Source of the DNA: Vampirovibrionales bacterium
Lineage (GTDB): Bacteria; Cyanobacteriota; Vampirovibrionia; Vampirovibrionales; JAJTHC01
Direction of reading: 5' to 3'
DNA: 64,000 bases
NCBI GenBank assembly: GCA_046341215.1
Contig: JBKDRU010000005.1
Coordinates: 79,233 to 143,232, forward strand
Position 1 is the first letter of the stretch. Every line of letters starts with the position of its first letter. Made by a program: the position numbers and the translations under genes. This document shows, piece by piece, positions 9,125 through 62,758 of this stretch. The notes under the pieces are model-generated. The model had not been told where the DNA came from. It saw only the letters and a program-made list of their open reading frames with translations, and searched no databases.

Positions 9125-9163
9125 AAGGATAAGGTTCCCTGTTTTTTGGATGTTTCGCTCCGT

Positions 9164-9300: not shown

Positions 9301-9451
9301 CCCACCTCGTCGCATCATTCCTTTGCACGACGTCCGCAAAATCGCTCGGGGATTCGCAATTCGCTCACCCGCTCGGATTTAGTGCTTGGACGCCTGCTGG
9401 TGCAACGATCCTTTAAATCAACAATTTTATCTAAAAAAGGAAATTCTAAAG

Positions 9452-9907: not shown

Positions 9908-9976
9908 ATACTCTTTCAGATCTACTATGTTAATGTTGAGCGAATGCTATTTAAGCTTTATTTAAACATTCTTTAC

Positions 9977-10005
9977 TTGACAGACTCGCCCCTACCTACT
10001 ACAAT
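9977..10005 (+). promoter_or_regulatory. Near-consensus sigma70 promoter
   Basis: TTGACA at 9977-9982, an exact 17-bp spacer, then TACAAT at 10000-10005. This is followed by an AAGGAGGA ribosome-binding site 7-8 nt before the ATG at 10054. Confidence 0.7.
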
Positions 10006-27415: not shown

Positions 27416-29085
27416 GACACCTTATCCTCCCCCACTGGTTTTGAAGCAGATGCTTTCAAGTGCTGGCGAATGGCGGCTTGCTTACTCAAAGGCAAGCCTT
27501 CCGTGGGTACAGGGGCTTGCGTATTTTTTTCATGGGGTTTGGCTTTGTTGAGCGTGACTAAGCGGTTGGCGGGGTATTCTCGTCCTCTTTGAATCGCATG
27601 AGACAAGTACCACATCCAGCCCAGCATCCACATCAAAGAACCTAGTGTAATGAAGGCTTTGGTGGCTTTTGCGGTATTGAAAGATTGAGCAAGGGCCTCC
27701 CTGAAATCACCCTTACCTGCTTTAGCAAAGAAATTACGTAAGCCTGCCACCATTAAATCACGTCCCTGGTCCATACCACGTAAATGATATAAGAAAGCCT
27801 TTTGAGTAGTTCCCTTACCCTGCATGGTATTCAGATGGATCATTTGCTTTTTCATACGTGTATTTGGGGAATGAATGGCGTTCGCCTTCAAAGCCGTGTG
27901 TTCTGCAATGTTATACAACGCTTGCATTTTAGCGGTTAACAGGGTATGTTCTTCACGACGTGTCTTATTAAAGAAAATAGAACCTGAACCATGTTCAACA
28001 TCAAACGCTAACAACTTGCCTTGAACATCAGCTATTTCTTTTATGACTTGATCCAAGGTCACATCTTTTAAGCTAAGTAGTGAATTGTTGTTGAGTTTGG
28101 TATGACTATTTAAAGACGCTTTTAATCCAAAAAGCTCGTCGTCTTTTAAGCCTTTTTTCAGGCTGTTTAAATGCCCATTACTCAGATGATAATAGGGATT
28201 GATCAAAGTATTGCCATGAAATTCGATCGCTACTTTTTCTTGACGCTTTAGATCAGGAATGCCTTCAAAAACACGTTCCACATAGCCTTTGCCGAAGGCT
28301 TCTAAGTTTTTTCGATCTTGGGGGTTAGTCGGCCGAATGGGTGTTTCAGTCAAAAACTGTTGCACATTTTGATGTTCTTGCGTCAGTTCGCTTTCAGACA
28401 TCTGCAAGGAACGACGCCCTGTCCAGCTTAAAAACTTGTTACGACTGAGTAGAGGCACTAGACCAAACACCAAGGCAGGCACCAGCAAGGAACCTGGGGC
28501 CGCTTGTACTTCTCTCATTATTTCTTCACCCAAGTTCGCCCAATTGGCATTTTGGGATTTTTTGCAGCGAATATAAATCCACTTATTTAAGCCTTTGCGT
28601 TGTTGGGCTTCAGGGTCTTTTTCAGGGTCATAAGGCACGGCCCCTCGTTGTAAAGAACGTGAAATACGAGGAAACCCCATACCCACAAAGTCTAAAATCG
28701 TAAAATCCCAAAAGAATTGTGAATCAATTTTAGATGCCAAATTTGCCGCTAGTACTGGATTCAATGTGGACGCATACCCTACTGCTGCTAAAGTCAGCAG
28801 TTCAGGCGAAATTTCAAATTTGGCTTCTTCGTGCTTCTTTTTTCGTCGCTTGAAGGGGTTGAGTCGCTGTGCTAAAGAAGTTTTTTCGGTGGCTTTCCCT
28901 TCCATTTCAGTGGCTGGAGTGGGTAAGGAAGGCTGGGTTTCGAAGGCATCGTGAGTAGGGAATTCTTCTATCATCATATTAGTTAAAGAAGGCGTGGATG
29001 CCTTTCGCCTTTGCGGCTCGTCTTGTTCAGCTTTGAGCTTTGCAAGTGTATGATAATAAAGAGACGACTGTTTAATGGACATCAT
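27412..29085 (-). CDS. Large hypothetical membrane-associated protein (~557 aa), first gene of the operon
   Basis: The frame opens at a TTG at 29097 and the likely start is ATGATG at 29085. There are two hydrophobic segments and no recognisable domain. Confidence 0.55.
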   Translation of the reverse strand: MMSIKQSSLYYHTLAKLKAEQDEPQRRKASTPSLTNMMIEEFPTHDAFETQPSLPTPATEMEGKATEKTSLAQRLNPFKRRKKKHEEAKFEISPELLTLAAVGYASTLNPVLAANLASKIDSQFFWDFTILDFVGMGFPRISRSLQRGAVPYDPEKDPEAQQRKGLNKWIYIRCKKSQNANWANLGEEIMREVQAAPGSLLVPALVFGLVPLLSRNKFLSWTGRRSLQMSESELTQEHQNVQQFLTETPIRPTNPQDRKNLEAFGKGYVERVFEGIPDLKRQEKVAIEFHGNTLINPYYHLSNGHLNSLKKGLKDDELFGLKASLNSHTKLNNNSLLSLKDVTLDQVIKEIADVQGKLLAFDVEHGSGSIFFNKTRREEHTLLTAKMQALYNIAEHTALKANAIHSPNTRMKKQMIHLNTMQGKGTTQKAFLYHLRGMDQGRDLMVAGLRNFFAKAGKGDFREALAQSFNTAKATKAFITLGSLMWMLGWMWYLSHAIQRGREYPANRLVTLNKAKPHEKNTQAPVPTEGLPLSKQAAIRQHLKASASKPVGEDKVS

Positions 29086-29361
29086 ACGAATGTGCAAAAC
29101 CTATACTTTAAAATCCCAATGAACGAAACGATGCTTGTAGCTCCTAAGTGTATGGAAGTAACCATTCACAAACGTTACAAGATTCAAAGCCACATCAGCA
29201 TAAAACCCTTTTTTAATAAGGATTGTGCCAAACGTCGTTACATTCGAAAACGAGAGAAGACGATAACACCACGATGAGAATACGAGAAAAAACGTTCGGT
29301 GAATATATTCAAAATATTAAGAATTTAGTTTACCTCATAATGGGCGTTTTGTCAAAGGTTG

Positions 29362-32646: not shown

Positions 32647-35283
32647 TTAAACGGCTTTTTTGGAAGGCGTTGGCTTTTGAGTCAAGGCATACATCAACGC
32701 GGCTTCTTGAGGCGTCAGTTGCTTGGGTACGTTTGTCGCTTGTGAAGCCGTCGGGTTTTTCGCCTGTTGAGCCAAGGCGTATAACAAGGCGGCTTCCTTG
32801 GGGTCAATGTCTCGAACCTTTTTTGTGCCAGCCAAACGATAGGCTTCTTCGATTTGGGCAGGCGTCAAGGTGATTTTTTCTTTTGTGGACGCTTCAGGAT
32901 ATTTGGCAATTAAGGCAATATCTTCTTTTTTAATCGAACTAAACTCGCGATCTTTAATCGCTTTAAGGGTTTCTCTAGCTTTGTCACGCTCTTCGTATTC
33001 GACCAAATACGTGGGTTTGCCCACAGTCTTGTCTTGAATCGTTTCCACCCCTTTACGTAGTTTGCCTGCTAAGAGGAGTTGACCTCCCAGTCCAATGATA
33101 ACACCCGCCCCTGTCAACCAGTGAAAGCCTGCCACGACAAAGGGGAGTTTAAAGCTCGTCAAATAATGCCCCCCCATCAGCTTACCCAAACGATTGCCTC
33201 GGTTCAAGAACACCATCAACTGATGACCACCGATCATCGGCAAGGCAATGCCTAAACAGGCTCTTAAACCTGCTTTAATTTGTTCACCCAAGACAAAGGG
33301 CTTTTCAGCAGGCTTTTGGACTTCAGTGGTTTTAGCGTCTTTACTTTGAGGCTTGGCTTGGACGTTGTCTGGGACGTTGGCTTGAAGAGGTGGCGTAGAC
33401 TTTGCTTGGGGCGCTTTTGTTTTAGACGGCTTACCTGCGGCCATAAATGCCGCCCAGCCCGTACTAAAGGCGGTCACGGCTCCTAAGAAGAACATTAGAT
33501 ATCTTGGTTGAGCTAAACTCTTCAGCATACCAAGCAGCGGATTATGACCCCCCTTGCTCAAGTCAGACATCGCTATGGCTTTCTTTTTCAAGACTTCTTC
33601 AGGCTGTTCATGCAAGGCAAACTTTGCCATATCAATGACGCCACGCCACACGGAAGCCACACCACGTCCTAAACCACTCACGCCCCACGCTTCAGAAAGT
33701 TCTTTCTGATTATGAATGAATTGTTCATGTTCAGAGATGTTTTGCATTAAACGTTGAATCGAACGTGGCAAGACATCGTGGAGTTTTTTAAAGGCTGTTA
33801 AACTTTTTTGAGCATGGTTACTAAACTCCCCATTGAGTTTAAAGAAATCATTCACCGTCATTTTCTTCGAAGGATCTAACGCTGCAATGTGTTTTTCAAC
33901 CGCTTCTTTGCCCAACAAAGCTTCCCAATGGGCTTGATTACGGGTGATTTCTTGCAGAGCCGTGCTTCTTAATTCTACGAGCTTCGCTTCAGGTGTGAAA
34001 ATTTTAGAAAAATAACGACTGAATGGCAGGACTAAATTTTTATCCCCCACCTTTTTTAAACGAAAAATAGACGATTGTATATCTTTAACTTGAAGCAACT
34101 GGGGGTTATGTTCCAACGCCTTAACTTGTGCAGGCGTCATAGATTTGGCGGTATCGATATTCATATGTTCGGGCGACCAGAACCAACGCTGTCCTCCCTT
34201 GTAAAGGTCTGAATGAATTTGGTGTAAATAGGCGTGCTTCACGCTCGGCGGATTGACTCCGTTTACATACGCAATGACGGCTTTTTGAAGTTCTTTGACG
34301 GCGTCTGAATCATTAGGCGCACCTTCTAAAATAACCTTCATTTGTTGAGGACACTGTTGAATAAAATCATCAAACTGAGTTAAATATTCAGGATTCTTAT
34401 CTCTTCCCAAAACACTCAGGAGTTTGGATTTGGAGAATTTTGACATCGCTTCAGGCGAACCAGACGCCTTAGCGTTCGCTAAGGCTTCTTCAAATACGGC
34501 TTTAAAGTGATGATAGAGGTTTTGGTCTAACGCCTTATTTTCCTTGCCTTGGGTTAAAAAGCCTTTGGCATCTGCTTCAAGGAAGGGGTTCATCAACGTC
34601 GTAGTCACATGCCGATGCTGTTCAGGCGTCATGATTTGTTCAAAACGTTCGTAATAATCGTGATGGGTAGTCGCTTCTTTCAGCGTTTGATGCAAGTTGT
34701 TATAATGGGCAATATAGCGTTCTATCAAAGAATCGGGAGCAAGAGTTACCCCTGTTTTAAGCTTATTGGCCGTCGCATTGAAGGCATGTTCATGATTGCC
34801 AAGCCAATAACGGTTGTATTCATCGGAAGGCAGGTCGCCTAGGTACGCACGCATCCATGTAGGCAAGTTTTTAAAACTACCTTCTTTAGGCGTCCAGCCA
34901 TCTATCCATCTGGCGAAACCTCCCAAAAGGGTATTATGCGCGGTTTTTTTATTAAGGGGATTAATGGTTCCTAAGTTGGGATCCAAGCCCGCCAAGCGAT
35001 TAGCGATATTCGTAAACGCCAATAGAGAAACGAGTCCTAAGCCAATAGCAGCGCCTTTTTCGGGGTAAGACAAGCGTTCAGACGATTCTGGATCCATGAA
35101 CTGCATGGTCAGTGCAAGATCAAAGGCCTTTTTAGCCAACGAATCGCCTACTTCTCCCGCGTTTTCAAGTTGTTGTTGAACTTGATCTTGAGCGTTGTTT
35201 TGCACGTTTTTCATGGCTTGTAAGTGATTTGAATTTGTCGGAAAGTTCGGACTGCTTGATGAACTGGTATTAATCGATGCCAT
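32647..35283 (-). CDS. Large hypothetical protein (878 aa) with internal hydrophobic segments and C-terminal tandem repeats
   Basis: The N-terminus is Ser/Asn/Thr-rich (MASINTSSSSSPNFPTNSNH). There are three hydrophobic stretches, including a ~60-aa Gly-rich double-helix-like segment. The C-terminus carries two tandem copies of the motif (P/T)xEAAL(L/M)YAL(A/T)Q. Confidence 0.6.
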   Translation of the reverse strand: MASINTSSSSSPNFPTNSNHLQAMKNVQNNAQDQVQQQLENAGEVGDSLAKKAFDLALTMQFMDPESSERLSYPEKGAAIGLGLVSLLAFTNIANRLAGLDPNLGTINPLNKKTAHNTLLGGFARWIDGWTPKEGSFKNLPTWMRAYLGDLPSDEYNRYWLGNHEHAFNATANKLKTGVTLAPDSLIERYIAHYNNLHQTLKEATTHHDYYERFEQIMTPEQHRHVTTTLMNPFLEADAKGFLTQGKENKALDQNLYHHFKAVFEEALANAKASGSPEAMSKFSKSKLLSVLGRDKNPEYLTQFDDFIQQCPQQMKVILEGAPNDSDAVKELQKAVIAYVNGVNPPSVKHAYLHQIHSDLYKGGQRWFWSPEHMNIDTAKSMTPAQVKALEHNPQLLQVKDIQSSIFRLKKVGDKNLVLPFSRYFSKIFTPEAKLVELRSTALQEITRNQAHWEALLGKEAVEKHIAALDPSKKMTVNDFFKLNGEFSNHAQKSLTAFKKLHDVLPRSIQRLMQNISEHEQFIHNQKELSEAWGVSGLGRGVASVWRGVIDMAKFALHEQPEEVLKKKAIAMSDLSKGGHNPLLGMLKSLAQPRYLMFFLGAVTAFSTGWAAFMAAGKPSKTKAPQAKSTPPLQANVPDNVQAKPQSKDAKTTEVQKPAEKPFVLGEQIKAGLRACLGIALPMIGGHQLMVFLNRGNRLGKLMGGHYLTSFKLPFVVAGFHWLTGAGVIIGLGGQLLLAGKLRKGVETIQDKTVGKPTYLVEYEERDKARETLKAIKDREFSSIKKEDIALIAKYPEASTKEKITLTPAQIEEAYRLAGTKKVRDIDPKEAALLYALAQQAKNPTASQATNVPKQLTPQEAALMYALTQKPTPSKKAV

Positions 35284-35622: not shown

Positions 35623-35962
35623 ACTCACGACGGGAAAGAGAGGGAAAGGGCTCCCAAAGGAGCCAAAAGGGTCGGTTTTTAAGGAGCTACTCTTCTTCAT
35701 TATGACCGCAATTTAAAGCCTTGCCTAGTGACGAAACACCATGTTTTTCTTCGAAGTAAGTGAATTCATAAAATGAGATTGTTTTTTTAATATAACAATT
35801 TGTTAACATTTAGCAATTCGTAGCTTTATAAATTGTTTATTAAAGCATAAGACACAAATAAAGTTCTTTTGTCTAAATACCCCCAAAACTAGCTTTTCGT
35901 TGCTCTATTTATTCTTCTTTATTAAATTTCCCTGTACACCTCACATGAAAGGATCACTTAAG

Positions 35963-37207
35963 ATGATTTCTCTTAATCCAAATAACCCTTGGTTGCCTAA
36001 TAACCAACAACCCCCTTACGATTTAGCCACCACCTCTCCCTATCCATCTGCGTACCCTGCTTTAGGGACTCCCGCTCAAAATACGTATGCTGTAGGAGCA
36101 ACCTATGGGCAAAATACTTCTGGCTGGGATACCTATCAAGCTCCGTATCAAGCTCCGTATCAAGCTCCAGCTGCAAATACATTGCTCGCCACGAATACCC
36201 AGACTTACACGAATGCCCCTACTACGATTACTGAGAAAACGTATGCCCCTGATACGAGAATCTATGCCCCTGAAATCACCTACAATTATATTACGAAGAC
36301 TTTTGAATATAAGCCTACCATCACACACGAAGCAGCTCCAGCTCCAGTGTATCCACCTCCAGTGCCCCCCCCAGCTCCAGTGTATCCAGATCCGCCTAAG
36401 ATTGAGCTTCCTAAAATTCAATATCCACCTCAAGAGTCTAAGAAAAAAGAAGGGACAAACTGGTTGCCTTGGCTTATAGGAGGAGGAGGAATCCTCGCCG
36501 CCCTCTTCTTGCCTAAACTTTTCGGCAAGAAAGATAAAGTTGAAGCCAAAGCGGAAGCCAAAGCTGAAGCAACGGTTACGGCTACGCCTGAAGCTGTTGA
36601 AGAAAAATCTGAAACACCCGCTAAAAAAGACACGGTTTACACCAAGCTTGAAATCAACGCTCACGGAGATCCTATTTTTGTGACACGCAATAGTCTAGGT
36701 GAAGTTACTAGACAAGAAGAAGTCAAAAGTGGCGTAGTCTTTGAAGACGGCAACTCTTCTTTAAGCGTTCAAATGGACAGCCAAGATCCTAAGAACGTTT
36801 TTATGAAAAGCTTTAGCTATACAGTCGATGGTAAAACCGTTCAAGGTGATTCTAAAGGTAACGTTACCGTTGGCGGAAAATCCGTTGCGGTGGGTTCTAG
36901 TGCAGAACTGCCAAATGGCGGTACGGTCACGGTTTCTAAAGAAGACGGCACTTCTATCGGTGGCTTTAAAAATCAGTCTAAGATCGAAATTAAATCCCCG
37001 AACGAATCGGGTAATGGTTATGAAAACATTACTTTACATGCTCGTAAAAACAAACGTGGTTTAATCATGTACGAGTTTAATGCTAGTAAAAAATCTGAAG
37101 CCTCGAATACTGCTGAACGTGTCAAAAATGGATTTGTAAAAAAAGCCTTTGATAAAGAATATAAAAATCAAGGGGTGGATGATACCCCTGTCACCGATAA
37201 AAAATAG
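35963..37207 (+). CDS. Repetitive Pro-rich, single-pass membrane/surface protein (hypothetical)
   Basis: The ORF opens at 35900, and the likely start is MISLNPN at 35963. It has YQAPYQAPYQAP and PAPVYP repeats, one transmembrane segment (WLPWLIGGGGILAALFLP), an (EAKA)n run and a ~230-aa C-terminal domain. Confidence 0.5.
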   Translation: MISLNPNNPWLPNNQQPPYDLATTSPYPSAYPALGTPAQNTYAVGATYGQNTSGWDTYQAPYQAPYQAPAANTLLATNTQTYTNAPTTITEKTYAPDTRIYAPEITYNYITKTFEYKPTITHEAAPAPVYPPPVPPPAPVYPDPPKIELPKIQYPPQESKKKEGTNWLPWLIGGGGILAALFLPKLFGKKDKVEAKAEAKAEATVTATPEAVEEKSETPAKKDTVYTKLEINAHGDPIFVTRNSLGEVTRQEEVKSGVVFEDGNSSLSVQMDSQDPKNVFMKSFSYTVDGKTVQGDSKGNVTVGGKSVAVGSSAELPNGGTVTVSKEDGTSIGGFKNQSKIEIKSPNESGNGYENITLHARKNKRGLIMYEFNASKKSEASNTAERVKNGFVKKAFDKEYKNQGVDDTPVTDKK

Positions 37208-53492: not shown

Positions 53493-54167
53493 ATGCAAAT
53501 CAATAAGCCCATGCTTCCTCAGGTGTCACCTTCGTTAAAAGCTCAACGACAGGGACTGATAGTTACAGACCCTGAAATGTTTAGGGCGGATGTCGAAGTG
53601 GCTATCCATGAAACATTGCGCTGTTATGTTGCAAATCGTGAGAACGGACCTTTCAATTCCAAATCTATTAAAAGTCAATTTATCAGCGCATTCAATAAAT
53701 TAAGAGAAGAGTTATTAGATATTCCTGATACATATACTGCTCTAGCTGAAGCCAAGGATTCTTCTCGATCTAAAAAGAGTACTCTTAATCCCCCTCGTTC
53801 CGTAACGCCAAGGAAAGGTAGAACTCGCCCTATAAATCCAAGCACTCTGAACATATATATATGTAGTCCAGAAGGTCTAAAAAGAAGAGTTTTGGATATT
53901 GTGCCAAGCCGACAAGCCAAGTATCTTGCTAAGAATGAGCTACTTCATGATCAAATGGGGCTACTAGGAGACTGGAAACAGGCACAGGGTTTAGACTTGG
54001 TATCTGAAGGCACTACAATTACTCAAAGCCAAGCCTTAGCCAAAATATGGACAAGAGAACGCATTGAAACCTTTGTAAATGAGGCTGTTGAAGAGGTTTT
54101 GAGCCGACTAACTAATGCGTTCAAGGTTGGCGATGTAAATGGCACGACAGACCGGGATGCCGTCTAA
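53493..54167 (+). CDS. Hypothetical ORFan (224 aa)
   Basis: No motif was recognised. The central region is basic and Ser/Pro-rich. Confidence 0.35.
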   Translation: MQINKPMLPQVSPSLKAQRQGLIVTDPEMFRADVEVAIHETLRCYVANRENGPFNSKSIKSQFISAFNKLREELLDIPDTYTALAEAKDSSRSKKSTLNPPRSVTPRKGRTRPINPSTLNIYICSPEGLKRRVLDIVPSRQAKYLAKNELLHDQMGLLGDWKQAQGLDLVSEGTTITQSQALAKIWTRERIETFVNEAVEEVLSRLTNAFKVGDVNGTTDRDAV

Positions 54168-55814
54168 AATATAATCCACTTGCAGTTCACCTTGGGCTTT
54201 ATTTTCTTCCATGTAAACAATCGTCAAGGTTTCTAAACGTTGCCACAGGGTGTTGTCAGGGTAGGCGTAACGCGTCGTCACAAAGGCGACATTGCCCACA
54301 ATGCGAGTCGGTACTGAATCAATCAAGCGATGCTGGCTACGTTCTTCTTCCACATTTAAACCAAACGTGTCGTACTGAATTTCACGTAGTTTAAGCGATT
54401 CACGCCAATCGCCTAAGAAACGATTGCCCGCAAAGCCTTGACGCTGGGATTTAAGTTCATCCGCCAAATATTTCTGAGCAGCTAAGGCGTACTTTTCAGC
54501 ATCCTTGGCTTTTTCGGTTTGACGCTGGGCGTCGAGCTTGTCTTTTTCAGCATCCAGTAATTGACGTTGCAGTTTGGCTTTGTCGTCCATAAGCTTCATC
54601 AAATCATTTTCATTATAGGTATGCTTCATTTTTTTGATGAGTGTGGTAAGTTCTTTGACTTTTTTATTGAACAAATTGTTCACATTATACAAGTGAGAGT
54701 TCAACTTTTCCGCTTCGATCAAACGGGTTTGAAGGGCATCCTTTTCAGTGAGTAACCTGTCCACAATTTGCAAAGAATGTTCTTGCTTTTCATGCACGAC
54801 GGCTAAAGGAGCTGATAAATACTGCGCTGGACTCGCTTCTGTAGAACGCTTTTCCACAATACTATTTGGCTTAAGCGACACAGGGGCTTCTACCGTTTCA
54901 AGACCTTTAGTCTCTTTGACGTGATTGGCTTTAATCGATTCCACCAAGGCTTCTGGTGACATAATAGCAGGTGTATAGGTCCATTCTGAAATCTCTTGAG
55001 ACGTTTGCGTCAGTTCGGAAAATTTAATCGCTTCAGCCAAGGACGGATGAATGACCGTTTCATTGTTATGTGGAACCGTGTCTTGAATAGGCGCTTGAAC
55101 AGGCACCTCTTCCACATGAACCAAAGGTTCTTGGGTAGCGGTGATTTCTACAGACATAGGTTCTGCCAAGACGTCTTCTAACACTTGGATAGACGCATGC
55201 GTTTCTACAACTGTTTCAGGAACAGCCTCTTCTAGATCAGGCGATACTTCAAAAGGATCGCTGGTGATTATAGGGAATCCACTTTGCACATCCGCACTTA
55301 AATCGGCTTGAAGGCGAGCTTCTAAATCTAGGTTATTGAACGTATCAGCTGAATCCCCCTGCTCAATAGCAGGTGCGACTTCAACGGGATGCATCACTGT
55401 TTCAGCACTTTCTTTAAAGCTTTCAAGTAAAGCTTCACTCTCTAAACTCAAAGGAGCCACAACCCCTTCAGCGTTATGCACTAAGGGATTAGTCACTGCT
55501 GTCGCTTCAGAAGCGGGCGTTTTAATCTTTTGAAGGGTAGGGGCATGTTCCCATGCTTGTTTCACATTGCGTTCTACAGGCTGGCTTTCCTGAGCTGGGG
55601 GCAAACTAATAATTTGTTTGATGTGCGCCAAGCTTCGCCCTAAGGCGATATGTTTTTTAATATTTTTAAAGAGGTTTAGATGCTGGCGTGTATACAACTT
55701 ATTGCCTTGGGCATCGGTGGGAATACTCATGCCAAGTGCATCTTCCCAGTCACGCAATTGTTGGGGGTGAATATCATATTTAATTAATGTGTCTTGAATT
55801 GTGTTACTCGTCAT
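54108..55814 (-). CDS. Hypothetical protein with MerR-like N-terminal HTH, acidic low-complexity middle and coiled-coil region
   Basis: The N-terminal ~65 aa (IKYDIHPQQLRDWEDALGM...GNKLYTRQHLNLFKNIKKHIALGRSLAHIKQII) follow the MerR-family HTH pattern. A long Glu/Val/Pro-rich region and a predicted coiled coil follow. Its 3' end overlaps the convergent upstream ORF by 60 bp. Confidence 0.45.
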   Translation of the reverse strand: MTSNTIQDTLIKYDIHPQQLRDWEDALGMSIPTDAQGNKLYTRQHLNLFKNIKKHIALGRSLAHIKQIISLPPAQESQPVERNVKQAWEHAPTLQKIKTPASEATAVTNPLVHNAEGVVAPLSLESEALLESFKESAETVMHPVEVAPAIEQGDSADTFNNLDLEARLQADLSADVQSGFPIITSDPFEVSPDLEEAVPETVVETHASIQVLEDVLAEPMSVEITATQEPLVHVEEVPVQAPIQDTVPHNNETVIHPSLAEAIKFSELTQTSQEISEWTYTPAIMSPEALVESIKANHVKETKGLETVEAPVSLKPNSIVEKRSTEASPAQYLSAPLAVVHEKQEHSLQIVDRLLTEKDALQTRLIEAEKLNSHLYNVNNLFNKKVKELTTLIKKMKHTYNENDLMKLMDDKAKLQRQLLDAEKDKLDAQRQTEKAKDAEKYALAAQKYLADELKSQRQGFAGNRFLGDWRESLKLREIQYDTFGLNVEEERSQHRLIDSVPTRIVGNVAFVTTRYAYPDNTLWQRLETLTIVYMEENKAQGELQVDYILDGIPVCRAIYIANLERIS

Positions 55815-56039: not shown

Positions 56040-56321
56040 ATGCAGATATACACAATAGCTAACTCACCCGTTACCTTCACCTATAAAGGATGCCCCATGT
56101 TTTTTAGTCGCTTGATGAATCAGCGTTCCACGAAGTCTATTCCGCAATGGTTCGCTCATATCTTGCACCAAGCCCTCCCCTTGTGGGATGCTCCCACGCA
56201 AGAAACCATGTCCATTCTGTTGTCAGACGATCAGTTTGAGCTAGTTATGCAAAGCCTTAAAGAAGTGAAGCAAGGCGACGTCGTGCGTTCAGCTGACGTT
56301 TTTGCTGACTTGGTGGATTAG
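56040..56321 (+). CDS. Putative type II antitoxin (partner of RelE/ParE toxin)
   Basis: It lies immediately upstream of the toxin gene with its stop abutting the toxin start (TAG-ATG). The start is uncertain, with internal Mets at 56097, 56115 and 56208. Confidence 0.4.
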   Translation: MQIYTIANSPVTFTYKGCPMFFSRLMNQRSTKSIPQWFAHILHQALPLWDAPTQETMSILLSDDQFELVMQSLKEVKQGDVVRSADVFADLVD

Positions 56322-56654
56322 ATGACAACGGCTAAATCACCTGCTTATGAAGTATTACTGAGTCGATCCGCCGTGTCGGCTCAAAAGAAGCTTGATAAGC
56401 CGTTGCGCCTGTTGCTGAAGCAGGCATTGGAACGTTTGGCGACGAATCCCACAGGCTTGGGGGAACAACTCAAGCAACCGTTGACGATGCTCAGGTCGCA
56501 CCATGTAAGGTACAAAGGCTTAGAATGGCGAATTGGTTATCAGTTGAATGAGGAGGCTCATGTGATTTATGTGGTACTAATCGGACCACATGAAAACTTT
56601 TACCGTACCTTGAAAAATTGTTTGTCGTCGTTGGCGTTGGGGCGTGTGGGTTAA
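56322..56654 (+). CDS. Type II toxin, RelE/ParE family
   Basis: The C-terminal pattern WRIGYQLNEEAHVIYVVLIGPHENFY matches the RelE/ParE signature (YRIIY-x-I-x5-V-x-VL-x-IGHRKDVY). The protein is 110 aa. Confidence 0.6.
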   Translation: MTTAKSPAYEVLLSRSAVSAQKKLDKPLRLLLKQALERLATNPTGLGEQLKQPLTMLRSHHVRYKGLEWRIGYQLNEEAHVIYVVLIGPHENFYRTLKNCLSSLALGRVG

Positions 56655-56792: not shown

Positions 56793-59144
56793 CTAGTAGC
56801 GATCACGTCCGCCACCACGACCACCGCCGCCACCACGATAGCCACCGCCACCGCCACGACCGCCACGATCTGGACGCTCTTCACGTTCAGGACGCTCACT
56901 CAAGGTTTCAGGCACCACGAAAGGTGCTAAACCAAAGCTGGCACGCTCTTCATCGGTCACATCTTTCATGGAAAGATTGGTACGACCACGCTCATCAATC
57001 GCAGTCACACGAACCACGACTTCATCGCCAATGTTGACGGCATCTTCAATGATACCGACTCGGCAAGGGAATTGCGAAATGTGAATCATGCCATCTTTAC
57101 CAGGAGCGAGTTGAACAAAGGCGCCAATAGGGATGATGCTTTGCACCGTGCCTTTAATCAACATGCCTGCTTCAAACTTACGAGTCAAGTCTTCAATCTT
57201 CTTACGAGCCGCAGCCATCGCTACGCCGTCGTTTGTGGAGATATGCACCAAGCCTTCGTCGTTAATATCAATGGTTGCCCCTGTTTCTTCAATAATGGAG
57301 CGAATCATTTTACCACCCGGTCCAATAACGGTACCGATTTGATCTTGATCAATTTTGATGGTTTCAATGCGAGGGGCATAGGTCGACAATTCAGGACGAG
57401 CTTTCGGAAGGGCTTCTGCCATTTTTTGCAAAATATGCAAACGACCTTGACGGGCTTGCTCTAAGGCTTGACGCATAATGTCAATGGAAATCCCTTGGAT
57501 TTTAATGTCCATTTGAAGGGCGGTCACACCATCCGTATTACCCGTGACTTTAAAGTCCATGTCACCCAAGAAGTCTTCAAGACCTTGAATGTCGGATAAA
57601 ATAACGGATTTATCGCCTTCTTTAATCAGACCCATGGCAATACCACCGACGACTTTTTCAATCGGCACACCAGCATCCATTAAGGCAAGTGTCGCTCCAC
57701 AGGTGGAACCCATCGAGGTGGATCCGTTAGAAGCAACGACTTCACTGACCACACGCAAGGTGTAAGGGAACTCGGCTTGTTTAGGCAACGATGCGGCAAC
57801 CGCACGTTCAGCGAGGCAACCATGGCCAACTTCACGACGACCCGCCCCACGGTTAGGACGAACTTCACCCACACTGTAAGCAGGGAAATTGTAGTGGTGC
57901 ATCCAGCGTTTTTCGGTGTCAGGCTCAACGCCGTCTAAGCGTTGAAGATCACCTGGTGAACCGAGCGTGGCGATTGAAAGCACTTGAGTGCCTCCACGGG
58001 TAAATAAAGCAGACCCATGCACACGAGGCAAGACGCCAACATGACATTTAATGGGGCGAATTTCTTCAGAATTACGACCGTCGGCACGGATGCCTTCGTT
58101 AACGACCATGGCTCGCATGACTTTTTTCTCAAGCGATTTAAAGGATTCGCTGAAAACGGGCACATCTTGAGCTTTGATGAGGACGTTCAATTCGTGGTCT
58201 TCACCTAAGGCTTCGAGGGCTTTTTTAGCCTCTTCCTTAATCGCAGCGACCAAGTCTTTGCGTCCGTCACGGTCTTCATTGTGATAAGCGGCATTGACTT
58301 TATCGTAGTAATTCGACTTCAAGAACTCCAAAACAGGGCTGTTGTCAAATTCAGGCGTAAATTCTTTTACGACTGGCACACCACACAAGTGAGCAAAGGC
58401 TTCTTGAGCCGCCACTTGGTTTTTGATTTCTTTATGAGCGAAATCTAAGGCTTCAATGAGTTCGTCTTCGGTGACGAAATCGGCGCCTGCTTCCACCATC
58501 ATAATGGAATCTTTGGTACCAGCAACGACCAAGTCTAAAGGACTTTCAGCCATTTGCTTGTAAGTCGGGTTAGCGATTAACGCACCGTCGACTTTACCCA
58601 CACGAACCGCACCAATCGGTCCTTGGAAGGGGGCGTTTTTGCAAAGCGTCAAAGCGAAAGACGCTGCCAAAATAGCCAAGGCATCCATGGGGTTTTCAAG
58701 ATCGCTGGTCAAGCCGTTGACGACGATTTGCACATCGTTACGGAAGCCATCAGGGAAAAGAGGGCGAATGGGGCGATCAATCAAACGAGAGGTTAAAATC
58801 GCTTTTTCACTCGGGCGAGCTTCACGCTTGTTGTAGCCACCGGGAATGCGACCCACGGAATAAAGCTTTTCTTCGTAATCGATGAGCAATGGGAAGAAAT
58901 CGATCCCTGCACGAGGGGTTTCGGTCGCCGTGGCATTTGCCATAACGGTGGTTTCGCCACATTGTAGAATAATCGAACCGCCAGCCGCACGAGAAATACG
59001 TCCCGTTTCAACGTAAACGGTTTTACCGCCAATGTCGAACTGAGCCCGTTTCATATCGGGGTAAAACGCATCGAGCGTGGGGTTAGTAATACCAAATTCA
59101 CCCGATTGTTGGGGGTGGGTCAAGGTTTCTTGAGACATCATCAT
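56793..59144 (-). CDS. pnp: Polyribonucleotide nucleotidyltransferase (PNPase) with C-terminal RGG-rich tail
   Basis: Two RNase PH domains, a KH domain (GPGGKMIRSI) and an S1 domain are present. An extra ~60-aa Arg/Gly-rich tail follows (RPDRGGRGGGGGYRGGGGGRGGGRDRY). Confidence 0.95.
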   Translation of the reverse strand: MMMSQETLTHPQQSGEFGITNPTLDAFYPDMKRAQFDIGGKTVYVETGRISRAAGGSIILQCGETTVMANATATETPRAGIDFFPLLIDYEEKLYSVGRIPGGYNKREARPSEKAILTSRLIDRPIRPLFPDGFRNDVQIVVNGLTSDLENPMDALAILAASFALTLCKNAPFQGPIGAVRVGKVDGALIANPTYKQMAESPLDLVVAGTKDSIMMVEAGADFVTEDELIEALDFAHKEIKNQVAAQEAFAHLCGVPVVKEFTPEFDNSPVLEFLKSNYYDKVNAAYHNEDRDGRKDLVAAIKEEAKKALEALGEDHELNVLIKAQDVPVFSESFKSLEKKVMRAMVVNEGIRADGRNSEEIRPIKCHVGVLPRVHGSALFTRGGTQVLSIATLGSPGDLQRLDGVEPDTEKRWMHHYNFPAYSVGEVRPNRGAGRREVGHGCLAERAVAASLPKQAEFPYTLRVVSEVVASNGSTSMGSTCGATLALMDAGVPIEKVVGGIAMGLIKEGDKSVILSDIQGLEDFLGDMDFKVTGNTDGVTALQMDIKIQGISIDIMRQALEQARQGRLHILQKMAEALPKARPELSTYAPRIETIKIDQDQIGTVIGPGGKMIRSIIEETGATIDINDEGLVHISTNDGVAMAAARKKIEDLTRKFEAGMLIKGTVQSIIPIGAFVQLAPGKDGMIHISQFPCRVGIIEDAVNIGDEVVVRVTAIDERGRTNLSMKDVTDEERASFGLAPFVVPETLSERPEREERPDRGGRGGGGGYRGGGGGRGGGRDRY

Positions 59145-59269: not shown

Positions 59270-60298
59270 TTATTCTGGTTCTATATTGATTACAAGCCAA
59301 TAGGCACCTGTGTAATTGACTATATAAACATCAAGACCCTGTCTCGAATGGAATTTTTTTTCATACGGAGGAAGCTGGTTGCAAAGAACAAATCGTCTAA
59401 GCTCCAATTTCTGCATATCGGGTTCTTTATTATTAACATCAAAAATACATTCATTAACAATGGTATTGTATCTATTTTTAACCATATTTAAAATAGTCGT
59501 AACTGAATTTGAATCTACTAGAGCAGGAAGTAAAGAGGACAATGCTTCAAAGTTATATGTTAAACGTTCTTGCGTTTCTTCATTTGTAAAGTCCTCCTCT
59601 GTTGTAGGGCTAAACAGTTCTATTTCAATTCTTGAGTCAGGATGAATTGCTACGCTATTGCTTTCTAACCAACGTCCATCTTCATTATCATTAAAGGCTT
59701 CACCAAAATGACAAATCCCATAATTTAGACTAGCATCTCCTTTGTACTTCATATTGGAACAGGTTAATTCAGGCCAAGCTAGAAGTAACTTTTTTTCAAT
59801 CGGTGAAATAGTTTCAAATCCGACAGTGTCTGTAGCTTCTACATAAGGGTCATTTTTATTCTCCGTGGCAGAAGTTTCTATATTTCTAGTTACTGAGGGT
59901 TCCTCTGCTTGAGTTTGTTCAGCACTTTGAAAAGGCAAGGATATCAATCCAAAAAAAATAAAGGAGCCAATAGCAACCCCTACTGAATTCCCCCATGTTG
60001 GGAGCAACATATTTTTTTCGTTTTCTTTTTTTTGAGCTTCTTCTAAACGCCCCTCTTTTTTCAAGCGTTCTACTTCCTTTTGAAGTGATTTGAACCTGAC
60101 CTCTCTCGATTCTACACAGGCAAAAGAAGCCAATAAAGCCGACACTCCCAATACCCAGTTCCCATTTATAAACCCTAAAACAGCTATAACCGCCCAAGCA
60201 ATCATCCCAATTTTACGAAACAAAGCCTCTTTTGTTGTTTCTTCTTCTACTCTATCGTTAGTTGAGGTATCGCTAGGAGTTGACGATTCGCTGGCCAT
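59270..60298 (-). CDS. Hypothetical membrane ORFan, AT-rich
   Basis: The likely start is MASESSTPSD; the ORF extends to 60361. There are two transmembrane segments. It is the most AT-rich gene in the window by eye. Confidence 0.4.
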   Translation of the reverse strand: MASESSTPSDTSTNDRVEEETTKEALFRKIGMIAWAVIAVLGFINGNWVLGVSALLASFACVESREVRFKSLQKEVERLKKEGRLEEAQKKENEKNMLLPTWGNSVGVAIGSFIFFGLISLPFQSAEQTQAEEPSVTRNIETSATENKNDPYVEATDTVGFETISPIEKKLLLAWPELTCSNMKYKGDASLNYGICHFGEAFNDNEDGRWLESNSVAIHPDSRIEIELFSPTTEEDFTNEETQERLTYNFEALSSLLPALVDSNSVTTILNMVKNRYNTIVNECIFDVNNKEPDMQKLELRRFVLCNQLPPYEKKFHSRQGLDVYIVNYTGAYWLVINIEPE

Positions 60299-60464
60299 GA
60301 TAAAACCCTTTAATTTAAAATGTGTTTTATAGAAAATAACACAAAATTCATCAATCTTCAATTTTCCCTAAGCAAGCATCCCCCTCCATTCCGCCGATGC
60401 CCTTAAAGCGTCCGTTGAAAAGCACCGAAAGAGTCTTAAACCCTAGACCGAAGGAGGCTCCCCT

Positions 60465-60926
60465 ATGATGACGCTACTAAACGCAATGACGATTTCGTCT
60501 TCAGGCATGACGGCTCACGCCCAACGTGCCCAAGTCCACGCCACGAACATGGCAAACTTAGGGACACCCGGCTATAAGCGTCAGATCCCTATTTTAAGCC
60601 AACAAGCCCAAGTGCCGTTTGCGAATTTAATGGGCAATGTGAAAGCCTCGGCGTCGGGCGTGCCAGCCAATACGTTGAACAATCTAGGCGAAGCAGGCGT
60701 TACGATGTCAGGCACGATAAGCGATCCCACCAAAGGGACGCAGCTCTATATGCCTTATCACCCCGCCGCCGATGCCAACGGTTATGTAGAAGCATCGACC
60801 GCTAACCCGTTGGTGGATATGGCAGATGCCTTAATGGCAAACCGCATGTTTGAAGCCAATTTATCAGTCTACGGCATTTTAAAAAGCATGGCTTCCCGAT
60901 CCATTGAACTGGGTTCAGGCAGATAG
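60465..60926 (+). CDS. flgC: Flagellar basal-body rod protein FlgC
   Basis: The N-terminal rod motif ISSSGMTAHAQRAQVHATNMANLGTPGYKR and the C-terminal rod domain (NRMFEANLSVY) are present in a 153-aa protein. Confidence 0.8.
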   Translation: MMTLLNAMTISSSGMTAHAQRAQVHATNMANLGTPGYKRQIPILSQQAQVPFANLMGNVKASASGVPANTLNNLGEAGVTMSGTISDPTKGTQLYMPYHPAADANGYVEASTANPLVDMADALMANRMFEANLSVYGILKSMASRSIELGSGR

Positions 60927-61018
60927 TTTTAATTTGCTTTAGGAAAAGACTTTCCCGAATTGCAATTATACTTTATACTATTAAATTGTATGATGGTTTT
61001 GCTGAAGGAGCTTTTTCA

Positions 61019-61690
61019 ATGGATTTCAAACTACTCACTTTTACCTTGCAACATGACTGGGCGGTCTTGTCCCCCATTATTGTGGCATCCCTCATTACAG
61101 GGGCGGTAGTGTTTAAACGTTTGAGCTTCTTTAAAAGCCAAGAACGTGAATTAGAATCTTTTGTTCAACGCTTGCAACGTGAACTCGCAAAACATAATTA
61201 TGATAACGCACTGGCTATTAGTGAACAGCTCGGCGGGATTTACGGTCGGGTTAGCCAAGAAGGCATCCAACTACTTCGCCAGCATGGTCGTGATGCCAAA
61301 TCGTTTGGTAGTGCCTTTGACATTACACTTGCTTTAGCCTTGCGACGTTTGGAACAGGGCTTGAATATTCTCGGCACCGTAGGCACGATTGCCCCATACT
61401 TAGGCTTGTTCGGTACCGTTGTTCGTATCTTGTTGACCTTTGGCGAAATGGCAAATTCGGCTCAAGGGCAAGCGTCTCAAGTGATGTTTGGTATTGGCTC
61501 TGCTTTAATTGCCACCGCGTTCGGTTTAGGTGTCGCGATTGTCGCTGTTGTGGCGAACAACTATTTCCGCTCCAAGGTCGAAAGCTTTGAAAATGATTTC
61601 CAATTGTTGAAGCTGGTCTTGCTTTCTTCGGTGGATGCTCCTCATACAACGTCTCAAGATCATCAGACGCAACACCCTGTTCATGCGTAA
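61019..61690 (+). CDS. MotA/TolQ/ExbB-family proton channel
   Basis: Three transmembrane helices and the family signature GTVGTIAPYLGLFGTVVRI are present. The ATG at 61019 follows a GAAGGAG ribosome-binding site. Confidence 0.8.
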   Translation: MDFKLLTFTLQHDWAVLSPIIVASLITGAVVFKRLSFFKSQERELESFVQRLQRELAKHNYDNALAISEQLGGIYGRVSQEGIQLLRQHGRDAKSFGSAFDITLALALRRLEQGLNILGTVGTIAPYLGLFGTVVRILLTFGEMANSAQGQASQVMFGIGSALIATAFGLGVAIVAVVANNYFRSKVESFENDFQLLKLVLLSSVDAPHTTSQDHQTQHPVHA

Positions 61691-61705
61691 AAGGAGCGAA
61701 ACCCT

Positions 61706-62167
61706 ATGGCGGCTCAGGTCAAACGTTTTGATGAAATTAATATTACGCCCTTAACCGATATCTTCTTGGTGCTGCTCATTATCATGATGGTGATTGCCCC
61801 TAGCATCGCTCAGAAAAATGAGGCGGTTGCATTGCCTTTGGTTGAAAATGGTAAAGCCATTAGCAAAAACCTCATTACAGTGGATGTGTCTGCCAAAGGG
61901 GACTACGACGTTCAAGGTGAATCGGTTCAAGCCAGTGAACTCGGTGCTAAAATTAAAGCCTTATTGCCGACGGTGACAGAACAAAAAGTGTTGTTGCGTG
62001 CTGATAAAGCCAGTTCTAACAAAGCGGTTTTAACCGTTATGAAAGCGGTTGCAGGTACAGGAGTAGAACGTATTGTTTTTGAAGGGGAAGCGGCTCCACC
62101 GAAAAAAGAAGCGTCCGAACAGCCGTCTATTTCTGAAGAAGGAGCATCCCTCAATGGCGAGTTCTAA
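61706..62167 (+). CDS. ExbD/TolR-family protein (copy 1)
   Basis: An N-terminal transmembrane segment (INITPLTDIFLVLLIIMMV) and a periplasmic ExbD-like domain are present. Confidence 0.75.
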   Translation: MAAQVKRFDEINITPLTDIFLVLLIIMMVIAPSIAQKNEAVALPLVENGKAISKNLITVDVSAKGDYDVQGESVQASELGAKIKALLPTVTEQKVLLRADKASSNKAVLTVMKAVAGTGVERIVFEGEAAPPKKEASEQPSISEEGASLNGEF

Positions 62168-62561
62168 AGGATTTAAGCGTTTTGATGAGATTAACATCAC
62201 GCCTCTCACCGATATTTTCTTAGTCCTGTTGATTATTATGATGGTTGTGGCACCCATGCTCAATAGTCAAGGCTTAAACATCAGCTTGCCTAGCTTGTCT
62301 GATTCGCTTCAAACCCCTGAAAAAGATCAAAAAGTCATTGAAGTGGATATTTTGTCGAATAATCAAATTAAGATCAACGATGAATTATTGCCATCGTCGG
62401 ATGATTTAACGCAACGTTTGTTGGCGTTAAAAACGGCGTTTCCTGATGGCGTGGTACTGAACTTGAGTCCGCTTGCGTTGCACGCGACCAGCATGAAGGT
62501 GTTGGATGCTGTTGAAGGGGCTAAAATAAGTGCTTTGTCTATTGTGGAATCTCCTCAATAG
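62154..62561 (+). CDS. ExbD/TolR-family protein (copy 2, tandem paralogue)
   Basis: Its N-terminal ~35 aa are nearly identical to copy 1 (FKRFDEINITPLTDIFLVLLIIMMVVAP). The ATG at 62154 follows GAAGGAG and overlaps copy 1 by 14 bp. Confidence 0.7.
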   Translation: MASSKGFKRFDEINITPLTDIFLVLLIIMMVVAPMLNSQGLNISLPSLSDSLQTPEKDQKVIEVDILSNNQIKINDELLPSSDDLTQRLLALKTAFPDGVVLNLSPLALHATSMKVLDAVEGAKISALSIVESPQ

Positions 62562-62618
62562 AAATAACAAAAAAAGTCTTGCATTCTAGGCTTGAGGATG
62601 TAATATAAATAAAGCTAA

Positions 62619-62694
62619 GGGCGTTTAGCTCAGTTGGTAGAGCGTCTGCTTTACACGCAGGTGGTCCACGGTTCGAGTCCGTGAGCGCCCACCA
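62619..62694 (+). tRNA. tRNA-Val (TAC)
   Basis: A 76-nt cloverleaf is present, GGGCGTTTAGCTCAGTTGGTAGAGC...GGTTCGAGTCCGTGAGCGCCCACCA. The anticodon loop is UUUACAC and CCA is encoded. A terminator hairpin follows at 62696-62726. Confidence 0.9.
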
Positions 62695-62695
62695 C

Positions 62696-62726
62696 AAAGG
62701 CTCCAGTCATGTGACTGGAGCCTTTG
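62696..62726. terminator. Intrinsic terminator after tRNA-Val, bidirectional with the convergent TRL gene
   Basis: AAAGGCTCCAGTCA-TG-TGACTGGAGCCTTT forms a perfect 14-bp stem, followed by GTGTTT. Confidence 0.75.
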
Positions 62727-62758
62727 TGTTTCAATATATACAGTCTATTAGAATAAGT

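Follow-up and report, generated by a model that had tools for sequence, protein, structure and literature searches.

The exbB-exbD-exbD cassette at positions 61019 to 62561 of the window, i.e. the whole 64-kb stretch of DNA analysed here, is a genuine operon, whose three genes encode a proton-driven motor of the inner membrane, of the TolQ/ExbB type. We consider it likely that these genes supply the motor for a trans-envelope system of the Ton/Tol type, whose transducer is encoded elsewhere in the genome. The cassette has the look of an ordinary system for energising the envelope, and not of a motor for gliding or for the flagellum.

The genes of the region all lie on the forward strand. A flgC-like flagellar rod gene (60465-60926, with matches to PF06429, PF00460 and, at 83.8 bits and under the cutoff of 102, TIGR01395) is followed by an AT-rich spacer of 92 bp read from the sequence (60927 to 61018), and then by the cassette. 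This comprises an exbB/tolQ-like channel gene (61019 to 61690, 223 aa, MotA_ExbB domain PF01618 at 7.5e-30) and two exbD/tolR-like paralogues, of which the first encodes 153 aa (61706 to 62167, ExbD domain PF02472 at 6.9e-23) and the second 135 aa (62154 to 62561, PF02472 at 1.2e-18). The downstream boundary of the operon is a tRNA-Val(TAC) gene (62619-62694), found with ARAGORN and matching the Rfam tRNA model with 69.7 bits. It is the sole RNA match, and a riboswitch or other RNA element at the cassette was therefore rejected. An earlier note, made from the sequence alone, had described one MotA/TolQ/ExbB channel and two ExbD/TolR genes, downstream of flgC and with a tRNA as the next gene, and the domain and RNA matches agree with this description on each point.

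The exbB reading frame spans 60986-61690, and its true start is the ATG at 61019, which has an AAGGAG 9 nt upstream and gives a protein of 223 aa, the length of its homologues. The second exbD starts at the ATG at 62154, rather than at the TTG at 62073, and is likewise preceded by AAGGAG. The cassette is compact, with a gap of 15 nt between exbB and the first exbD (exbD1), and an overlap of 14 nt between exbD1 and exbD2 that suggests translational coupling. A promoter of the cassette's own probably lies in the spacer between flgC and exbB. Consensus scans of this interval were uninformative, with six promoter-like sites where 4.1 were expected, and one terminator-like site where 3.0 were expected.

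In sequence and fold, the channel subunit resembles TolQ and ExbB equally, and MotA poorly. It scores 103.7 bits with PF01618 (cutoff 22.9) and has three hydrophobic segments, corresponding to transmembrane helices. Its scores with the NCBIfam models for tolQ (TIGR02796, 102.3 bits, cutoff 221) and exbB (TIGR02797, 71 bits, cutoff 206.2) are below cutoff, and those with the MotA models are about 30 bits or less (cutoffs 237-380). A sequence search of the PDB gave 62.7 bits for TolQ, 58.8 for ExbB and about 24 for MotA/PomA. When its AF2 model (pLDDT 85.9) was compared with known structures using Foldseek, TolQ and ExbB were retrieved at E of about 1e-6 and TM of 0.65-0.70, as against about 1e-3 and 16-20% identity for MotA/PomA. 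E. coli TolQ agrees with it in fold and length (TM 0.70, E 1.5e-6, 30% identity), and E. coli ExbB is about as similar (TM 0.65, 29% identity). The threonines of the second and third transmembrane helices (TM2 and TM3) are conserved and align with those of E. coli TolQ and ExbB. However, the position of Glu176 in ExbB and Glu173 in TolQ is an invariant Ser throughout the cassette's ExbB family, the TM3 Pro of E. coli TolQ is a Val, and the 11-residue cytoplasmic insertion of E. coli ExbB is absent.

Both ExbD paralogues belong to the PF02472 family (81.5 and 67.8 bits, cutoff 25.4). Their scores with tolR (TIGR02801; 80.9 bits for ExbD1 and 62.2 for ExbD2) are under the cutoff of 127.3, and the ExbD models (TIGR02803/4) reach at most 50.1 bits, given by ExbD1 with ExbD_1, where the cutoff is 123 or more. 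As all NCBIfam equivalog scores of the cassette are under cutoff, it is strictly speaking neither TolQR nor ExbBD. ExbD1 consists of one transmembrane helix with a conserved Asp (Asp18, aligned to D23 of TolR and D25 of ExbD), a periplasmic domain and an acidic Pro/Glu/Ser tail, and the corresponding Asp is kept in ExbD2. Over the full length, the paralogues share 45 identical residues in 158 aligned columns, and yet they agree at 26 of 27 residues of a common core, KRFDEINITPLTDIFLVLLIIMMV[I/V]AP. The earlier note had the first part of the two proteins nearly identical in protein and DNA, which is correct for the protein; the DNA of the core is identical at 63 of 81 nt (78%), and at only 12 of 26 third positions (46%). 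Each of the 80 related loci has the core conserved in both paralogues, and the copies sort by position into two orthologue groups, one upstream and one downstream (exbD1 being the upstream member in 80/80). Recent events, be it a tandem duplication or a gene conversion, were thus rejected; the duplication is ancient and has been held by purifying selection. All three genes of the cassette are under strong purifying selection within the window's clade, with dN/dS ratios of 0.02-0.2 overall (exbB 0.03-0.07, exbD1 0.02-0.2 and exbD2 0.06-0.10).

Evidence for a trans-envelope system comes from the relatives. In 57 of approximately 80 orthologous species-level loci across Vampirovibrionia the cassette directly follows a gene for a TonB_2-domain protein, with the genes arranged as secreted protein, TonB_2 protein, ExbB, ExbD, ExbD. 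The TonB_2 protein is about 380 aa long, and consists of a transmembrane helix with an S-x3-H motif, a long linker and a C-terminal domain that matches TonB_2 (PF13103) without passing TonB_C. The motif, by which TonB/TolA bind their motors (PMC12204202), opens the single transmembrane helix in all 54 partner proteins that were checked. Clustering of the neighbours over 80 loci returned the TonB_2 protein and the secreted protein, which is encoded further upstream, as the sole conserved neighbours. The label "TrbI-like" for the secreted protein was discarded, as it goes back to a precomputed weak match only and the Pfam scan gave none. Loci labelled Caenarcanum and Gastranaerophilales also have the cassette adjoining the TonB_2 gene, and it is found throughout the class, even in the gut Gastranaerophilales with their small genomes. 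Each of the 80 assemblies has one cassette, and the complete 2.04-Mb genome L001 has one family member among the best 120 matches listed, indicating orthology rather than paralogy; paralogy is thus an unlikely cause of the unlinked state of the remaining loci. In a neighbour-joining tree of ExbB, most loci without an adjacent transducer cluster together, with L013/L020 and L022 falling among the linked loci. The clustered unlinked loci could, judging by the tree, be a functionally diverged subfamily. The window's lineage has lost the transducer linkage, and such losses have occurred repeatedly within the class, which shows that operons of this kind break apart easily.

The window itself, about 3% of a roughly 2-Mb genome, carries no TonB, TolA, TolB, Pal, OmpA/MotB or TonB-dependent receptor in the 45 of its 51 larger ORFs scanned with Pfam. 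The other six were covered by a TonB2-like HMM (ORFs from 40 aa), E. coli TolA, TolB, Pal and MotB queries (from 60 aa), and a scan for S-x3-H transmembrane helices (from 150 aa). The HMMs, made from 54 TonB2-like and 52 secreted-partner proteins, and the S-x3-H scan likewise gave no transducer hidden in the window, and the 10-kb flanks of the cassette in the six closest relatives also hold none. A partner in the window's lineage is thus assumed. The statement of the earlier note that no tonB, tolA/tolB/pal or OmpA-like motB follows the cassette is borne out, and holds for the whole window by Pfam, HMMs and queries. Its term "orphan" applies to the window, where nothing TonB/TolA-like is adjacent, and not to the family, as an adjacent tonB, which the note had named as evidence against its reading, has a near equivalent in the TonB_2 gene of the 57 relatives' loci.

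Under the preferred reading, a motor module with a distant transducer, a TolQ/ExbB-like pentamer would surround a dimer of the two ExbD/TolR paralogues, giving a 5:2 stoichiometry. The dimer is presumably an ExbD1-ExbD2 heterodimer, as the two genes are present 1:1 and appear to be translationally coupled. Protons would cross by way of the transmembrane Asp of each ExbD and a ring of Thr in TM2 and TM3 of ExbB, and the resulting motion would be passed to a periplasm-spanning TonB/TolA-like transducer that pulls an outer-membrane or cell-wall partner. With the upstream linkage broken in the window's lineage, the transducer gene most likely lies at some other place in the genome, and a tonB gene unlinked from exbBD is frequent in other bacteria (PMC12204202).

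Regarding the output, a Tol-like role in envelope integrity or division is slightly favoured over TonB-dependent import. The E. coli TolQ and ExbB scores, and likewise those of TolR and ExbD, are nearly equal, so that the choice between Ton and Tol fails as a decision from sequence and amounts to a weak lean only. In favour of Tol, the top-scoring NCBIfam models are TolQ, TolR and TolA (tolA_full), which outscore those of ExbB, ExbD and TonB. Tol-leaning observations are also the TolQ-like length of the channel without the ExbB insertion, the long transducer, and the single-copy presence throughout the class. The cassette further resembles E. coli TolQ-TolR-TolA in the conserved TM2/TM3 Thr and TolR Asp, and in that the relatives' operons encode a TolA-like transducer with the S-x3-H helix. 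However, the cassette scores far under the E. coli Tol equivalog cutoffs (102 against 221 bits for TolQ), it has two TolR paralogues where Tol has one, and the transducer gene is upstream in the relatives (and missing in the window) where that of Tol is downstream. TolB and Pal were not found within 10 kb of the cassette in any of the 80 loci. In 1.33 Mb (window plus loci), the E. coli TolB query had no match and the Pal query one, in L039, a locus from outside Vampirovibrionia. As cpoB and ybgC were also not found near the cassette in any locus, its surroundings differ from E. coli Tol-Pal, and the missing TolB/Pal weakens the Tol reading. Likeness to Ton lies in the same Asp and Thr residues in the E. 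coli proteins and in the unlinked transducer gene, which is typical for tonB (PMC12204202). Points of difference from E. coli Ton are that the relatives' transducer has about 380 aa and matches TonB_2 without passing TonB_C, and that the window ORFs scanned with Pfam include no TonB-dependent receptor.

Of the alternatives, the one that survives best, although we regard it as unlikely, is that the transducer was lost in this lineage, and that the motor now acts by itself, or through a partner that is not of the TonB type, in a different envelope task. This would account for the absence of a transducer from 64 kb and from the relatives' flanks, and for the clustering of most unlinked loci in the ExbB tree. 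The strong purifying selection indicates that the motor is still used, and new classes of non-TonB transducers for TolQ-like motors, e.g. vWA proteins, have been described (PMC12204202). On the other hand, only the above fraction of the genome was covered, unlinked tonB genes are common (PMC12204202), and no conserved alternative neighbour has taken the transducer's place. The first transmembrane helix of ExbB is the docking helix for TonB/TolA. Its residues D13, P19, I20 and S24 are invariant in linked and unlinked loci alike, which also speaks against re-wiring. The more specific version, a loss of the transducer with re-wiring to a non-TonB-type output, possibly tied to the flagellar rod gene or to prey attachment, appears quite improbable. 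If true, re-wiring would give a 5:2 motor that is uncoupled by nature and serves a new client.

The earlier note had likened the cassette to the AglR-AglQ-AglS motor, which in Myxococcus drives gliding, or other surface-associated movement or trafficking, through the Glt proteins; we find this very doubtful. As a predator, Vampirovibrio attaches to its prey, which would suit such a motor, and the architecture is the same, one TolQ-like and two TolR-like genes. In M. xanthus, AglR-AglQ-AglS is also encoded apart from tolA/tolB/pal and acts through the TonB-like GltG (PMC3169522), so that the mechanism would be similar to that of the cassette. However, this layout is shared with many genuine Ton systems: tonB-exbB-exbD1-exbD2 in Xanthomonas campestris (PMC3551730), exbB2-exbD21-exbD22-tonB2 in Riemerella (PMC4446302), and sll0477-0479 of Synechocystis, an exbB with two tandem exbD genes (PMC8634477). 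The 1:2 layout, which the earlier note had ascribed to AglRQS as well as to some Ton systems, is thus real and not diagnostic of AglRQS, and the Ton alternative fits it best. The tonB-first order of Xanthomonas is that of most Vampirovibrionia loci (PMC3551730), the likeness to such clusters being one of gene layout, as the window is without tonB. Furthermore, AglRQS relatives make up a clade found in few groups besides the Deltaproteobacteria, their genes clustering with gltD/E/G/C (PMC3169522). Across 80 loci, the cassette has no such core genes as conserved neighbours, its taxonomic range differs in being universal in its class, gut Gastranaerophilales included, and the linkage in relatives is to TonB_2.

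The position after flgC, which the earlier note found curious, is incidental and lineage-specific, and flgC (dN/dS 0.006-0.08 within the clade) is a neighbour outside the motor system. Its adjacency is limited to the window's clade, i.e. the five closest relatives (L004-L008), and is missing in L001 (84% identical) and 70 other loci. Even within the clade, a reverse-strand ORF of 313-357 aa separates flgC from exbB in L004 (ExbB 99% identical) and L008. The spacer is an insertion hot spot in the relatives. A strain-specific membrane protein of 363 aa encoded 5' of flgC was dismissed as a partner: it matches no Pfam or NCBIfam model, and even the 99%-identical relative lacks a homologue. MotAB/PomAB stators combine a four-helix MotA carrying a large cytoplasmic loop with a MotB that has an OmpA-like peptidoglycan-binding domain. 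That the cassette is an alternative stator, or energises flagellar assembly or rotation, is the least probable reading: flgC lies 92 bp upstream on the same strand, in an order kept in the five closest relatives, and flgG, flgA, a flagellin-like gene and cheD are in the window, where motA/motB were not found, but the adjacency is as patchy and interrupted as described, the channel has three helices, TolQ/ExbB length and MotA matches far weaker than those to TolQ/ExbB (about 30 bits with the models; Foldseek E of about 1e-3 versus 1e-6), the ExbDs are without the OmpA-like domain, and Caenarcanum and Gastranaerophilales carry the same system beside a TonB_2 gene.

For the window, the tempting link between a TolQR-like motor and gliding or the flagellum is thus unsupported and is removed. 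The host belongs to Vampirovibrionales, which are non-photosynthetic relatives of the cyanobacteria. Full-text literature searches found no paper describing the five-gene cluster, and nothing relevant on Ton/Tol systems in Melainabacteria. The cluster of secreted protein, TolA/TonB-like transducer, channel and two TolR/ExbD proteins is common to Vampirovibrionia and a few other lineages, and is single-copy. As canonical TolB/Pal was not seen beside the motor, this cluster is a candidate for the coupling of inner-membrane energy to the outer membrane in this branch of the Cyanobacteriota.

Four closely packed genes and a tRNA occupy 60465-62694 on the + strand. The first is a flgC-like flagellar rod gene (60465-60926, +, 153 aa; PF06429 and PF00460), which scores 83.8 bits against TIGR01395 FlgC, under the cutoff of 102. 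An AT-rich spacer of 92 bp separates it from the cassette (61019-62561), which begins with an exbB/tolQ-like channel gene (61019-61690, +, 223 aa; PF01618 MotA/TolQ/ExbB, 7.5e-30). The channel ORF as listed begins at TTG 60986; its homologues are 207-265 aa long, most of them about 220-225 aa, and share the N-terminal motif found at ATG 61019, which AAGGAG precedes by 9 nt, so the start is placed at that ATG. Two ExbD/TolR paralogues follow: exbD1, 15 bases after the channel gene (61706-62167, +; PF02472, 6.9e-23), and exbD2 (62154-62561, +; PF02472, 1.2e-18), whose ATG at 62154 comes after AAGGAG and whose start overlaps the end of exbD1 by 14 nt. These Pfam and NCBIfam matches bear out the gene calls of the earlier note, which was also right that nothing TonB-like lies 3' of the cassette: tRNA-Val(TAC) (62619-62694, +) comes directly after exbD2, and next, on the opposite strand, is the gene for a small secreted protein of the TRL family. 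Right after the tRNA is a near-perfect palindrome (62691-62730), probably a terminator hairpin, of which both strands match one Rfam model with a non-significant score.

The evidence that decides the case is gene context in relatives. The best database matches of the channel protein are in Vampirovibrio and Vampirovibrionales MAGs, and JGI metagenomes contain a 100% identical counterpart. A scan of species-representative genomes gave 80 loci, each from a different assembly, nearly all of Vampirovibrionia (Vampirovibrionales, Gastranaerophilales and Caenarcanum) with a few bins under other labels. The orthologous cassette of Vampirovibrio chlorellavorus (56% identity) immediately follows the gene for a 377-aa protein with a C-terminal TonB_2 domain (PF13103, 45.5 bits, cutoff 22) and sub-threshold tolA_full and tonB_Cterm matches; further upstream is a conserved secreted-protein gene. 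ORFs were called in all loci and compared by phmmer; 57 of about 80 loci have the order secreted protein, TonB_2 protein, ExbB, ExbD, ExbD, and unsupervised clustering of neighbours (+/-7 kb, all loci) revealed no other widely conserved neighbour. A single transmembrane helix opened by S-x3-H, the motor-docking motif common to TonB and TolA (PMC12204202), is present in all 54 TonB_2-type partners examined. These linked partners with their S-x3-H helix make the ancestral unit in the class a complete Ton/Tol-type machine.

The five-gene cluster lies at 7730-9984 of the V. chlorellavorus locus (L002) and at equivalent positions in 54-57 of loci L009-L083. Its secreted protein, in one or two copies, is Gly/Gln-rich with a glycine-zipper-like C-terminal part, and has only a weak precomputed TrbI match that our own Pfam scan did not reproduce. 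Several public MAGs labelled Gammaproteobacteria, Oculatellaceae/Coleofasciculaceae cyanobacteria, Nitrospirales or Muribaculaceae also carry a Vampirovibrionia-type cluster (L004, JBEISK010000014.1; L021/L036, DATNPJ01 and DATNQC01; L024, L026, L037 and L069), probably through wrong taxonomic labels or mis-binning of contigs.

In the window and its five closest relatives (L004-L008, with ExbB identity of 81-99%) flgC takes the place of the transducer gene upstream of the cassette, and no TonB_2-like or secreted-partner gene occurs in the sequence at hand from any of them. In a closed 2.04-Mb genome (L001, 84% identity) the cassette adjoins neither flgC nor a transducer gene. Profile HMMs of both partner proteins gave no match in the whole 64-kb window or the closest relatives' flanks, and a scan for the S-x3-H transmembrane-helix motif found no transducer. 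TonB, TonB-dependent receptor, TolB, Pal, MotA and OmpA/MotB-type proteins were likewise not found in the window by Pfam and E. coli homology searches; the Pfam scans took in 45 of the 51 larger ORFs, and the other six (PNPase and, by eye, ClpX-, ClpP-, trigger-factor-, RsmH- and GlyA-like) were covered by the E. coli searches. When the channel proteins were placed in a neighbour-joining tree, most loci with no transducer gene beside the cassette fell into one group, which includes L001, L009, L010 and L033/L035 besides the window's clade, as well as a set of non-Vampirovibrionia bins; two further losses of linkage (L013/L020; L022) sit among linked loci. The unlinked cassettes could form a separate paralogous family, but orthology with rearrangement is more likely, since there is one locus per assembly and the 2.04-Mb genome has a single family member among the top 120 matches. 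Selection maintains the motor despite the lack of a linked transducer gene, with dN/dS within the window's clade of 0.03-0.07 for exbB, 0.02-0.2 for exbD1 and 0.06-0.10 for exbD2. The cassette had been described as an orphan, which holds for linkage in the window; set against the linked majority of loci, this state is a lineage-specific accident of gene order.

As to the kind of motor, the channel protein scores 102 bits against TolQ, 71 against ExbB and about 30 against MotA in NCBIfam, and both ExbD paralogues score higher against TolR than ExbD, all under the curated cutoffs. A PDB sequence search gave TolQ 62.7 bits, ExbB 58.8 and MotA/PomA about 24. Identity to the E. coli MG1655 proteins is 30% (TolQ) and 29% (ExbB), and the TM2 and TM3 threonines are kept. 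The channel family has a TolQ-like length without the 11-residue insertion of ExbB, and has an invariant Ser in place of Glu176 (ExbB)/Glu173 (TolQ) and a Val for the TM3 Pro. By hydropathy the channel protein has three transmembrane segments and each ExbD has one, and the essential transmembrane Asp is kept in both paralogues. For the AlphaFold2 channel model (pLDDT 85.9), TolQ and ExbB chains are equally good matches (E about 1e-6, TM 0.65-0.70) and MotA/PomA are clearly poorer ones (E about 1e-3). The cassette is a TolQ/ExbB-type motor, of a lineage apart from both E. coli prototypes.

This motor reading draws on what was observed: protein families, conserved residues, the fold, signs of selection, and gene order in relatives. 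Mechanistically, a pentamer of the channel protein would likely surround an ExbD1/ExbD2 heterodimer; proton flow via the Asp/Thr site would drive conformational or rotary motion. A TonB/TolA-like transducer, presumably encoded by a distal gene in the window's genome, would dock on ExbB TM1, take up this motion and act on a target that may be in the outer membrane or associated with peptidoglycan. For the output we slightly favour a Tol-like housekeeping role, because the best-scoring models are TolQ, TolR and TolA, the transducer is a long one, a single-copy system occurs throughout the class, small gut genomes included, and the operon is tight in most members. TonB-dependent import is a close alternative, because TolB and Pal were not found and the scan for receptors covered the window only. 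tonB is often unlinked from exbBD and tolA usually stays with tolQR (PMC12204202), and the cyanobacterial TonB-like protein TonB2 of Anabaena has a proposed TolA-like role in outer-membrane integrity (PMC8597729).

The likeness to AglRQS put forward in the earlier note extends to one channel and two ExbD genes, but this layout recurs in genuine Ton systems of Xanthomonas (tonB-exbB-exbD1-exbD2; PMC3551730), Riemerella (one exbB then two exbD; PMC4446302) and Synechocystis (sll0477-0479, same order; PMC8634477). What defines AglRQS is a clade of its own together with an association with gltD/E/G/C (PMC3169522), and the neighbour clustering of all loci showed no conservation of these genes near the cassette. 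Since AglR acts via the TonB-like protein GltG (PMC3169522), AglRQS and Ton systems are alike at the motor level and differ only in output. A flagellar stator is rejected, MotA/PomA being the clearly weaker match in both sequence and fold.

The position after flgC, thought curious at first reading, is treated as incidental, a lineage-specific accident of gene order. It is confined to the window's clade, and in L004 (99% identical ExbB) and L008 an opposite-strand ORF of 313-357 aa with no Pfam match lies between flgC and exbB (L004:8869-9810; L008:8745-9818, both -), making them separate transcription units there and the spacer an insertion hot spot. In an 81%-identical relative the flgC match is just a 78-aa fragment upstream of exbB (L007:1019-1366), which a frameshift, a pseudogene or an assembly error would explain. 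Rod/hook/filament-type genes occur within +/-10 kb in 12 of 82 loci, where they make up two or three arrangements unrelated to one another. A second, independent and probably coincidental nearness is seen in the V. chlorellavorus group, whose opposite strand carries flgE, flgD and fliK about 8 kb 3' of the cassette (L002:18706-20675, -; also L012, L015, L018, L019 and L023). The window also encodes flgG, flgA, a flagellin-family gene and cheD, so the organism is flagellated, with scattered flagellar genes.

The N-termini of the two ExbDs had been called nearly identical in both protein and DNA. This stands for the protein, whose common core KRFDEINITPLTDIFLVLLIIMMV[I/V]AP has 26/27 identity, but not for the DNA (63/81 identical, 78%), where codons for conserved residues have the same third position in only 12 of 26 cases; over their full length, the two proteins are identical in 45 of 158 aligned columns. 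The core is present in both paralogues of all 80 loci, and in every locus the upstream copy is closest to paralogue 1 and the downstream copy to paralogue 2. This makes the duplication an old one, predating the class and kept by selection on the transmembrane helix. Recent duplication or gene conversion is ruled out by the diverged third positions, the class-wide core and positional orthology.

Several other features of the window were recorded. Divergent from flgC, 59270-60361 (-) encodes a predicted two-TM protein of 363 aa with a coiled-coil stretch and no Pfam/NCBIfam match; its closest relatives lack a homologue and have different small genes at its position, and the region between pnp and flgC is strain-variable. 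Polynucleotide phosphorylase (56793-59144, -) has an unusual Gly/Arg-rich (RGG-like) C-terminal tail ...RGGRGGGGGYRGGGGGRGGGRDRY. A ParE-like toxin (56040-56654, +; PF15781, 1.3e-16) and the abutting 93-aa ORF preceding it are probably a type II toxin-antitoxin pair. The 568-aa protein at 54108-55814 (-), with an N-terminal MerR-type HTH and then long acidic and coiled-coil regions, is unusual in architecture among MerR-family proteins. Four large ORFs near flgG/flgA (622, 561, 878 and 435 aa; 25547-29097, -; 32647-35283, -; 35900-37207, +) have no Pfam match; some of them might be divergent flagellar or surface proteins.

A full-text literature search found no paper on the Vampirovibrionia five-gene cluster, nor did a search on Ton/Tol systems in Melainabacteria. 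The cassette is an ordinary Ton/Tol-type motor operon, correctly recognised as a motor from the start, and the modest by-product of its analysis is an uncharacterised, class-wide five-gene cluster in Vampirovibrionia.
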